Origin: a virus
Lineage: Duplodnaviria > Caudoviricetes
IMG/VR virus record: IMGVR_UViG_3300021431_000003
Location: 159,529 to 223,528 of that record
Direction: 5' to 3' (one strand)
Length of the DNA stretch: 64,000 nt
The notes below the pieces were generated by a model. The model worked only from the letters and a program-made list of their open reading frames with translations, searched no databases and had not been told where the DNA came from. Below are positions 38,000 through 42,800 of the stretch, piece after piece. A program made the position numbers and the translations under genes. Every line of letters starts with the position of its first letter. Position 1 is the first letter of the stretch.

Positions 38000-39874
38000 T
38001 TATTCAATACTTGTAACACCTTCTGGAATAACAATCTTCCTAATAGTCTTGTTTTTATTAAAGGTTGTACCATAAAGTGATCTAGTTTCTTCATCGTTCC
38101 ATCTTACTGGAACTTTTACACTATCACTTTCACCAATATAGAATACTGTATTAGACTCACCATCTACATCATCAGTAGTAGGAATAGTATGCCAAATAAA
38201 CTTATCGCCATCTTCCTCAAAGTAATACTCATCTATAATGGTAGGTATAATTTCATCTAGGTTAATAAAATCTGGTTCATTCATTGCTTCTTTATCATAT
38301 GGAGTCATTGGACCAGTCTTATTATTCCAATTATAGAATAGCTTATTAAGATTCTCATCAGACAAATCATTCAGCATTTCATCTAATAAGGTTCTCTCAG
38401 CATACGACTCTAGGTCGGTTATAGACCAGTGTTTTATTCTTAATGTATCTTTATAAGCATTAGGTTTATTCGTACCACTAAATTGATTTCTAGCAACTGA
38501 ATCATCATGATTTAATCCATCATTGATAAAGAGTTGTTCAATAATATCTTGTGTATCAAGATGATTAATTACTTCCAATCTAACAGCATTCATGTCTTCA
38601 TTATTACGAGCATAGTCTGTATTGATAGACATGATTGTATCAGAGATATCTTCTAATTCATCAAGTCTAACCTTTTTACCATTTAAGAATACAAAGGTAG
38701 AATATTTAGAAGATATAGCATACAATGGAGAACGCATCTTAATATAATTAGTTTTCCAGTTTACATTCTCATTTAGCATTTGTTCACCTATTACTCTATA
38801 CTCATTAGAATGTGTATTGAGTAAAATAGCACCGTTTTTGATATAACGCTCTTTATTTTGCATATCATAATAATCACACTCTAAATGATGTAAGTCGTTT
38901 GTTACATAGAATACATCTATAACATCTCCAGCTTCAAGTGCAACGTTAAAGATTATACCTACATCATTTATAGGAGTATTTACAATAGAATGTAGATAAT
39001 AATATGTTGGTGGTAATAATAAACCGTTCTTGAATACTAACAAATGAGAATTCTTTAAGCAATATTTAAAGTCATCGTTTAATCTATAGATAAATCCAGC
39101 TTCATGATTATTATCAATAGTAAAGTGCTTATATCTAAACTGACGTTTAGAAGTAAGGTATAATGTATACGGAACAGTAATAGTACGTTCTGTAGTATAA
39201 TTAGCATCCTGATATTGTTCTTGCGATGTAGAACTACCAGTTGCTAAACCAGCTCCAAGAGTCACATTTCTAATTCCAGTATCAGCAAATGCATAATCTC
39301 CAATATGTACTACATTATCAGAGAATGTAATAGCTGTACCTAAGTTAGCACATTTATCAAATGCACTTTCGCCGATAGATGTTATAGAATCAGGGAAAGT
39401 AACTATAGCTTTATTTGTTGTTGTATCATCATCATGAATAATACCAACACACTTTACTGAGCTACTATAACAGAATTGAATCGGAATTGTATTTATAGAA
39501 ATATCATCTCTAAAGAATATATATTCAATAGAACAACAGCTATAGAATACTCCAACTCCAAGGTTTGTTACAGAAGATGGGACTACGATTGTATTCATAG
39601 CCCCACTATTCATAAATGCATAATCTCCAATATTAGTTAGTGTTTCTGGGAGGATAATCTCAAATTTAAACATATTAAGATTAGAGAATGCACGATTTTC
39701 AATTTTTGTAATATCTTCCATGACAATTTGTTTTATGTCATTAATATTCATTCTTAAGCTTTGAATAAGACTTTGTTTTACTGTACTATTAGATGAGTCG
39801 CCATATATTGTAATATATGGGTCATTCTTATCTATATCAGAAAAGTCTGTCTTAGCACAATATATTCTTTGCAT
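38000..39874 (-). CDS. Virion protein with N-terminal BspA-type LRRs and C-terminal half repeat
   Basis: LPETLTNIGDYAF, VPSSVTNLGVGVF, FPDSITSIGESAF; ends IRKIVIPEGVTSIE-stop. Confidence 0.8.
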   Translation of the reverse strand: MQRIYCAKTDFSDIDKNDPYITIYGDSSNSTVKQSLIQSLRMNINDIKQIVMEDITKIENRAFSNLNMFKFEIILPETLTNIGDYAFMNSGAMNTIVVPSSVTNLGVGVFYSCCSIEYIFFRDDISINTIPIQFCYSSSVKCVGIIHDDDTTTNKAIVTFPDSITSIGESAFDKCANLGTAITFSDNVVHIGDYAFADTGIRNVTLGAGLATGSSTSQEQYQDANYTTERTITVPYTLYLTSKRQFRYKHFTIDNNHEAGFIYRLNDDFKYCLKNSHLLVFKNGLLLPPTYYYLHSIVNTPINDVGIIFNVALEAGDVIDVFYVTNDLHHLECDYYDMQNKERYIKNGAILLNTHSNEYRVIGEQMLNENVNWKTNYIKMRSPLYAISSKYSTFVFLNGKKVRLDELEDISDTIMSINTDYARNNEDMNAVRLEVINHLDTQDIIEQLFINDGLNHDDSVARNQFSGTNKPNAYKDTLRIKHWSITDLESYAERTLLDEMLNDLSDENLNKLFYNWNNKTGPMTPYDKEAMNEPDFINLDEIIPTIIDEYYFEEDGDKFIWHTIPTTDDVDGESNTVFYIGESDSVKVPVRWNDEETRSLYGTTFNKNKTIRKIVIPEGVTSIE

Positions 39875-39888
39875 ATTATCCTCCTTTC

Positions 39889-42800
39889 TTACTTAATAGA
39901 TTCTTCATCAGATAGTACTACGTCTCCATCTGAACAATGAACACAAGAACCAATCTTAGATTTATCTATAAGCCATGGATTATTTCTAGCCACAGCTTTC
40001 CATTGAGCGGCTGTACCTCTAAAGGTAACTCTGTTTAATGTATTATTACCAAATGCAAGTAATCCAATACCTGAAGTGCCAGGATTATCAGATACATGAG
40101 CATTGGAACTATCATGAATACTGTCAGTCTTTTCAGGAACTTTACCATCAAAGGTTAAGAAGTATTCTCCTCCACCTTGTTTAGTAACATTATAAAGACC
40201 ATTTACCTTGCTATCTTTATAAATGCCATGTCTAAATTTCTGACTTTCTACGACATAACCATTACGATTATCTGTAATAGCTCTATAAGAAAACAGTTCA
40301 TATGATAATTCATATGTAGTATTATTTGTATTAGATACAAAATATTCATCATCTATATCTTCTGGCATTACATTGACAAGTAATTGTACATTCTCTGGAT
40401 CTATTAAACTTGTATCACAAGCTATAACTGGTTTATCATTGAATGTATAATCATCACTATAACCGTCATATAATCCTTTGTCCATCTCATCGCCGTTTTT
40501 ATCTGTTCTTATACTTCTAGCAATTTTAGATATATATTGGCTAGGGACAGTCAATTTCAAATCATCGTTTGTATTACATTGTTTCTCAATTACTCTGTTA
40601 TTAGCATTTAAGAAGAATACAAATTCAAATACATCATTATCAGTTGCATCAGAATCAAGCATATCTACATCAAATGCAATATCATTATAATGAATAGTAT
40701 AATACTTATCATATAATACTCTATTCTTGAATATCATGACATAATTATCTTGTCTAGAGATATTCCAACGAGACATCTGCAGTTTTCTATAAGAATAAAC
40801 TACATCAACTTGTACAGTAACAATAAGATTATCATTAGCATCATAGAACTCTAACAGACCAGTATTCTGATTAAATACAGTCTTATTAGCTACATAATTT
40901 GCAGTGAAGTCCTTATCTACATCTTTAATATAAGACTGAGTAGTGTTAATAATGATAGTAGGATTTACTTGACCTCTATATCTAAGCTCAATATCTCCAG
41001 TTACATTATCATGTCTTACTCCATTATCGTCTATATAAGAGAACGATACACTACCACTCTTATTGATAGTAGCATATAATCTCTCAAGACTTGTAGTAAC
41101 AATGTAGTTATTGTTAGATACAAATGTAAACATCTTATAGTTATCTGTACTTGTATAAATCTCTGCTGGGTGAGAAGAGATATAATCTCTTAATTCTTTA
41201 CCAGTACGAGAGAAAGATGTAATACCACGCTTAATAGTAGCTTCTAACTTATCAGCATCATAACCGATAATATAGTTCATACCCTTTGTAGTATCACCTT
41301 GTCCAAATAGATTCTCTTCATATTCTTTATCGAATCCATAAGTAAAGTCAAATACTTCATCAAGTAAATGCATACTACTAATAGTATATTCATCCTGTTC
41401 AAGTGCCCAATAAAACATCTCTGGAAGATTACGTCTAAGACCCCACTCAGATACAAGTTTATGAGGAGTACCATCTTCTTCATAATAACCAAAGTTATAG
41501 AAGTATCTTGGGTCTTCTTGATAAGTACTATATATAGTTTTAGATGCTGCTGTAGTAATCATATCATCTCTACTACTATCTATTGGAATAGCCTTTGGAA
41601 TGATATAATCTGCAGAGTAGTTCATCTTTACTATACTAAGTATTACTTGATGTGGGTCAGATTTGAAGATATTATAAGCAAGAGCATTCAATAGATTTGC
41701 AGTATATCGCTTGTTATAGCTATCTACTACAGGAGCAGCATTAAGTTGTTTAAAGTTTTCATTATCGAAATAATAAATAAACTCATCTACTGGAGTTGCT
41801 CCTTCTTCCATGTTATTAAGATAAGATAATTCAAATCTTAACTTAAGATAGTCATACACTAAATCAGTATCTTCTTGTACAAATGTATAACCACTCATAA
41901 ATTTAGAATATGGAATTACTTTACCTCTATTATCACCATTACTTATATAGAATATATTGATGCTGGTAGGTTTATCATCTTCTAAGTTTCTAACATCGTC
42001 AATTGGAATTAAGAAATCCATGAGATTAGTATTATCTGGGTCAGCATCAATTAAGCTTTGCCAGAATGCTCTAATATCCTCATTAAGATTTCCTTCTTCA
42101 TCAAATAGTGTATTTTCTTTTACCATTTCTCTGAAGAAATCATGGTCGTCATCACAAATTATGAATCCACCATTCATATATCCAATATAATGCTCAGTAT
42201 CTTCTTCCTCATCTGAGTTTGTTTCAGATACATAATTGTCATCACCTGAGGATTTCATATGGATTTGATAGTTGATTACATTGATGTGTCTAAAGGAATC
42301 AAATGTTACTGTTGGTTTTCCTAATAACTCTTGAAGTGCATTATATAGTATAAAGCATTCATATGGAGTTACATAGTGATATTTATAACCATATGTGAAT
42401 GTCTTTTCATTTTTATTGATATAAGTACCAATATCTTTCTTAGCAAGAATATAAATTTCATTCAAATAAGTTTCGATATTAGCAGTTACATCTTGTCTAT
42501 ACTTCTCATATTCGTCAACTAGTTTATCATGATTCTTAATACGAAGAATATTATCTTGGTCGTATAATACTTTAGTATTATAGAATACTTTGAACAGACG
42601 TCTATTATTATATAAGCGTTTGAATCTTACATCCATGATATTGAATGGATGCCAAACAACTTTAAAGTCATCATTCTTAAGCGTCAATAAATTAGAGCTT
42701 TTAAAGTTTTCATTTACATCTTTATTGAGTTCAAATCCTAAAAAATTAAACTGTTTAAGTTTACATCTATAGTCTGTATTACAGAAAGACTTAAAGTCTT

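Follow-up and report, generated by a model that had tools for sequence, protein, structure and literature searches.

A probable structural gene of a jumbo phage has been divided in two by an inserted cassette that gives each half a complementary piece of one BspA-type leucine-rich-repeat (LRR) domain, the two pieces are predicted to dock on each other, and related phages have repeatedly lost the cassette and restored the one-piece protein. The window analysed here, a stretch of 64,000 nucleotides (positions 159,529 to 223,528 of IMGVR_UViG_3300021431_000003), is the last 64 kb of a complete 223.5-kb virus record with 33% GC and terminal repeats. On the minus strand, protein A (39889-44082, 1397 aa) is followed by protein B (38000-39874, 624 aa) in a different frame, and the 14-nt spacer between them (39875-39888) carries a strong Shine-Dalgarno sequence for B and leaves no room for an endonuclease gene. 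The original prediction held that one ancestral virion polypeptide was cut into two chains which re-dock by fold complementation of a circularly permuted LRR. Our results confirmed the underlying observation and supported this interpretation, although binding and virion location are inferred rather than measured, and the history was not a single cut but one old split followed by repeated re-fusion and recombination.

The head of B (residues 1-212, 39239-39874) is composed of an N-cap and about seven LRR_5 repeats (PF13306, 94.7 bits against a cut-off of 27.7), and it ends open at residue 212, after the strand and loop of a repeat. It is modelled with a pLDDT of about 90 over residues 1-210, and Foldseek matched it to the solved BspA-type proteins 4gt6, 4h09 and 4fs7 at E 1e-5 to 1e-4. 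The tail of A (residues 1336-1397, 39889-40077) begins at the IGxxAF half of a repeat, continues into a C-cap and then stops. Pfam did not detect this tail, and the only PDB sequence hit of the A profile was the C-terminal end of 4gt6, which is weak (E 0.2). However, a profile of the tail matched the ends of LRR blocks in intact proteins, where the preceding residues are the half that B supplies. The tail is not a chance resemblance, because G1338, G1356, W1361 and C1383 are invariant in 34 split homologues and its dN/dS was 0-0.39 in five pairs, which indicates purifying selection. The solved BspA/LRR_5 (TpLRR) surface proteins, such as 4gt6, 4h09, 4fs7, 6mlx and 4cp6, share the repeat consensus, the solenoid fold and the motif of the last repeat and cap, but they are single chains, whereas here the domain is completed only across two genes.

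Uninterrupted orthologues lacking both LRR pieces, for which the original prediction had proposed a search, were found. Among 62 homologous clusters of A plus the window's own protein, 25 continue directly from A residue ~1320 into B residue ~215-230 in one frame and carry neither piece. The other 38 are split; 35 of them have the tail as detected by HMM, and three have a divergent tail that still starts at the same half-repeat. In every split locus read, including the most divergent, the next gene is an LRR-headed B, although these loci are not independent of each other. No full-length homologue had one piece only, three short B-core records lacking the head being left aside, two of them on contigs under 2.6 kb. 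In one split locus (L014 2320-8511, protein P0034) A continues past its tail for about 680 residues with an unidentified domain and a further LRR_5 block, and its B head has lost about two repeats. In two assemblies (L038 900-975, and L040) A is interrupted by an in-frame stop about 280 residues before its end, whereas L039 is open, which may be a further split or an error. A profile search of 1.84 billion representatives revealed about 30 distant clusters of 710-1400 aa that hold A-type and B-type segments in one chain, and a profile of 25 of them maps in order onto A (positions 54-430) and B (487-745) and has no LRR. The ancestor was therefore one chain.

The core of A (residues 1-1312, 40147-44082), which has repeated small beta-sandwich domains, is collinear with the fused orthologues and with the distant one-chain family, and it is joined to the tail by a variable Gly/Ser/Pro-rich linker (1313-1335, 40078-40146). 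In B, a variable linker (213-232, 39179-39238) with pLDDT below 50 leads to the core (233-555, 38210-39178), the C-terminal part of the ancestral chain. A complex model of B1-216 with A1330-1397 scored ipSAE 0.89 in three runs, against 0.00 for the best of three controls; the mark was reached by 58 of 80 solved complexes and 2 of 110 mismatched pairs, counts that hold only roughly here because our own alignments were used. The runs agreed in at least 86% of contacts and the partner pLDDT was at least 86. The best contacts pair equivalent repeat positions (B191-A1339, B195-A1343, B204-A1352), so that the tail forms the next rung of a continuous inter-chain solenoid, with an interface covering B180-213 and A1335-1381. 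This supports binding but does not show it, because the halves of a split domain tend to pass by likeness to solved structures, and no other LRR served as control, so the specificity is untested. The point where B leaves the solenoid and the point where A enters it are adjacent, and we infer that the permuted gene order thus allows two linkers of about 20 residues to bring the A core and B core back together.

The cut may also lie inside a beta-sandwich whose last strand is donated by B. In a model of a fused junction (pTM 0.77) the strands on both sides were confident, with the relevant B strand above pLDDT 90, whereas B 214-244 was unconfident, below pLDDT 50, when B was modelled alone. This inference is weaker; a profile test for a cut beta-sandwich did not confirm it. 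The following domain of the B core resembles the adaptor sandwiches of phage tails, necks and baseplates at Z 6-7.7 (rmsd 2.1-3.8, 63-79 residues aligned), which is below the Z 8 caution line, and the viral structural hits include baseplate wedge and tailspike proteins. The gene that overlaps A upstream (44079-45014, minus strand) belongs to a virion structural protein family (phrog_21032, E 1.2e-8) and is related to the virion protein AR9 g281. These features are suggestive of a virion role, not proof of it. There was no match of A, the B core or a member of the distant family in 50,697 GenBank phage records, and searches of PHROGs, PDB sequences and ESM Atlas features gave nothing useful for A. 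AR9 g279 was a weak structural hit downstream of the syntenic gene, but no sequence link to AR9 g279/g280 or LPJP1 215 was found, and orthology is not claimed. A PemK-family gene (46036-46830; PF02452 in L011, L013 and L037) is conserved upstream of this block in relatives, and a membrane-anchored GAF-like protein and a Thr-rich protein with a 3D-like lytic domain form a conserved pair downstream (34546-36213).

Our results have also shown that the split is old and reversible. Split and fused states alternate, with 15 changes on the A tree (at least 10 forced) and 12 on a tree of the junction flanks (at least 6 forced), and the split forms were rejected as one clade (p-AU 6e-54). These quick LG+G4 trees are unrooted, so the direction of change comes from other evidence. 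The cassette's tree largely follows that of the B core, which argues for one old insertion and many losses. The fused locus L034 is 97% identical in DNA to the split locus L039 and differs by an exact 835-bp deletion between 13-bp direct repeats that leaves both linkers in place. A second fused fragment is 98.5% identical to a split A, a case seen at the protein level. Assembly artefact as the source of the fusions was rejected, because the junctions are many and lineage-specific and one junction type is shared by a supported clade of 10 clusters. The window's own A is mosaic, being 88-97% identical to the fused protein P0008 over its first 600 residues and 50-80% afterwards, so split and fused 3' modules are exchanged by recombination. 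The insert of about 840 bp reads as the end of an LRR gene, a stop, a ribosome-binding site and the start of an LRR gene. A simple origin, which is inferred, would be the insertion of DNA spanning the boundary between two tandem LRR genes, such as the intact pair of LRR_5 genes with the same C-cap that this genome carries outside the window (117440-120884).

A second split LRR is found at the other end of B. The B stub (residues 580-624, 38000-38137) is an N-cap plus one and a half LRR_5 repeats that stops mid-repeat, as it does in 24 of 68 split B homologues and 17 of 25 fusions. Its predicted partner is gene D (36318-36935, minus strand, 205 aa), which has short internal repeats followed by an LRR piece (146-205, 29.8 bits) starting at the complementary xxAF half. 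Between them lies gene C (36956-37993, minus strand, 345 aa), a probable adhesin with a pectate-lyase-like adhesive domain (PF20585, E 1.5e-9). Stub and D-type genes occur together in the window, L011 (which has three D genes), L013, L014, L021, L025, L038 and the P0042 locus, and they are absent together in L001-L009, L027, L028, L036 and L037. The C/D gene pairs form variable arrays of up to three per locus (L011 15105-21066; L013 14266-18650), and in L013 one C is fused to its D. Reuse of the design supports a connector role. It is possible, though tentative, that this phage family uses split BspA repeats as a general snap-fit system, in which a permuted, removable cassette splits a host gene yet clasps the halves without splicing, and a second, orthogonal split LRR plugs interchangeable adhesin adaptors onto the same protein.

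Most likely, A and B are translated separately and clasp through the completed solenoid, which holds the cut ends of the host protein together, while the cassette is inherited vertically, is dispensable and is lost by in-frame deletion at short repeats. It is less likely, but compatible with this reading, that the completed LRR is retained as a displayed adhesive or receptor-binding module and that the two cores hold together without it. Only B 180-213 touches the tail, yet the whole 212-residue LRR is under purifying selection (dN/dS 0.06-0.35), which is more than a clasp needs; the domain is lost repeatedly like an accessory module, it sits next to adhesin-like genes, and B's strand may lock into A directly. 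On the other hand, an adhesin could be inserted whole, and no homologue was found with an intact in-frame LRR at this site. It is unlikely that the pieces do not dock on each other, with A's tail being a small independent cap-like domain or binding another LRR protein of the phage and B's open end being capped by something else. The genome does encode other LRR_5 proteins and the model may reflect fold memory, but the two pieces are strictly present and lost together, they are exactly complementary in register, the tail's confidence fell to pLDDT 51 with an unrelated partner, and the two other large LRR genes end in their own cap. Removal of the cassette by an intron, splicing or programmed excision is very unlikely even without RNA reads and despite the precise cassette-free versions, one of them between direct repeats, because no relevant Rfam match (E up to 1) or intein family was detected, the cassette is protein-coding on both sides under purifying selection and has its own ribosome-binding site, the flanking repeats are 6-9 bp and different in other loci, and the fused junctions differ between lineages.

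The general idea that foreign terminal tails reassemble a fragmented phage gene is already known. Crona et al. described such tails for NrdA-a and NrdA-b of Aeromonas phage Aeh1 (PMC3045599), and as in that system the terminal extensions of A and B are absent from the uninterrupted orthologues. The Aeh1 tails, however, are peptides of unknown fold beside the mobE endonuclease, whereas those of A and B are two pieces of one recognisable repeat fold, the host is a probable structural protein, the state reverts repeatedly, and no endonuclease was found in the cassette in any locus read (gaps of 2-18 nt in six relatives). The Aeh1 tails were not needed for the two fragments to bind, so the cores of A and B may likewise associate unaided. 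In geometry the arrangement resembles the fractured genes with split inteins described by Dassa et al. (PMC2677866), in which each half of a broken conserved gene ends or starts with a piece of one domain that reassembles in trans and brings the cut ends together. Here there is no intein domain and no ligation is expected, the junction residues are Gly/Ser-rich linkers, the LRR pieces are in reversed order with the C-piece first, and no endonuclease gene is present. We found no report of a split repeat solenoid in this role, in a literature search that left out most subscription papers.

If the clasp is real, it is a natural split repeat-protein connector, i.e., a self-neutralising insertion that breaks a gene and supplies its own non-covalent repair. 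It would also offer a small tag of about 55 residues and its catcher, possibly as two orthogonal pairs, for protein engineering. Both the split and the fused states are alive in 97%-identical phages, which would give a direct system for testing why split genes persist, and the arrangement would show how jumbo phages may attach variable receptor-binding modules.
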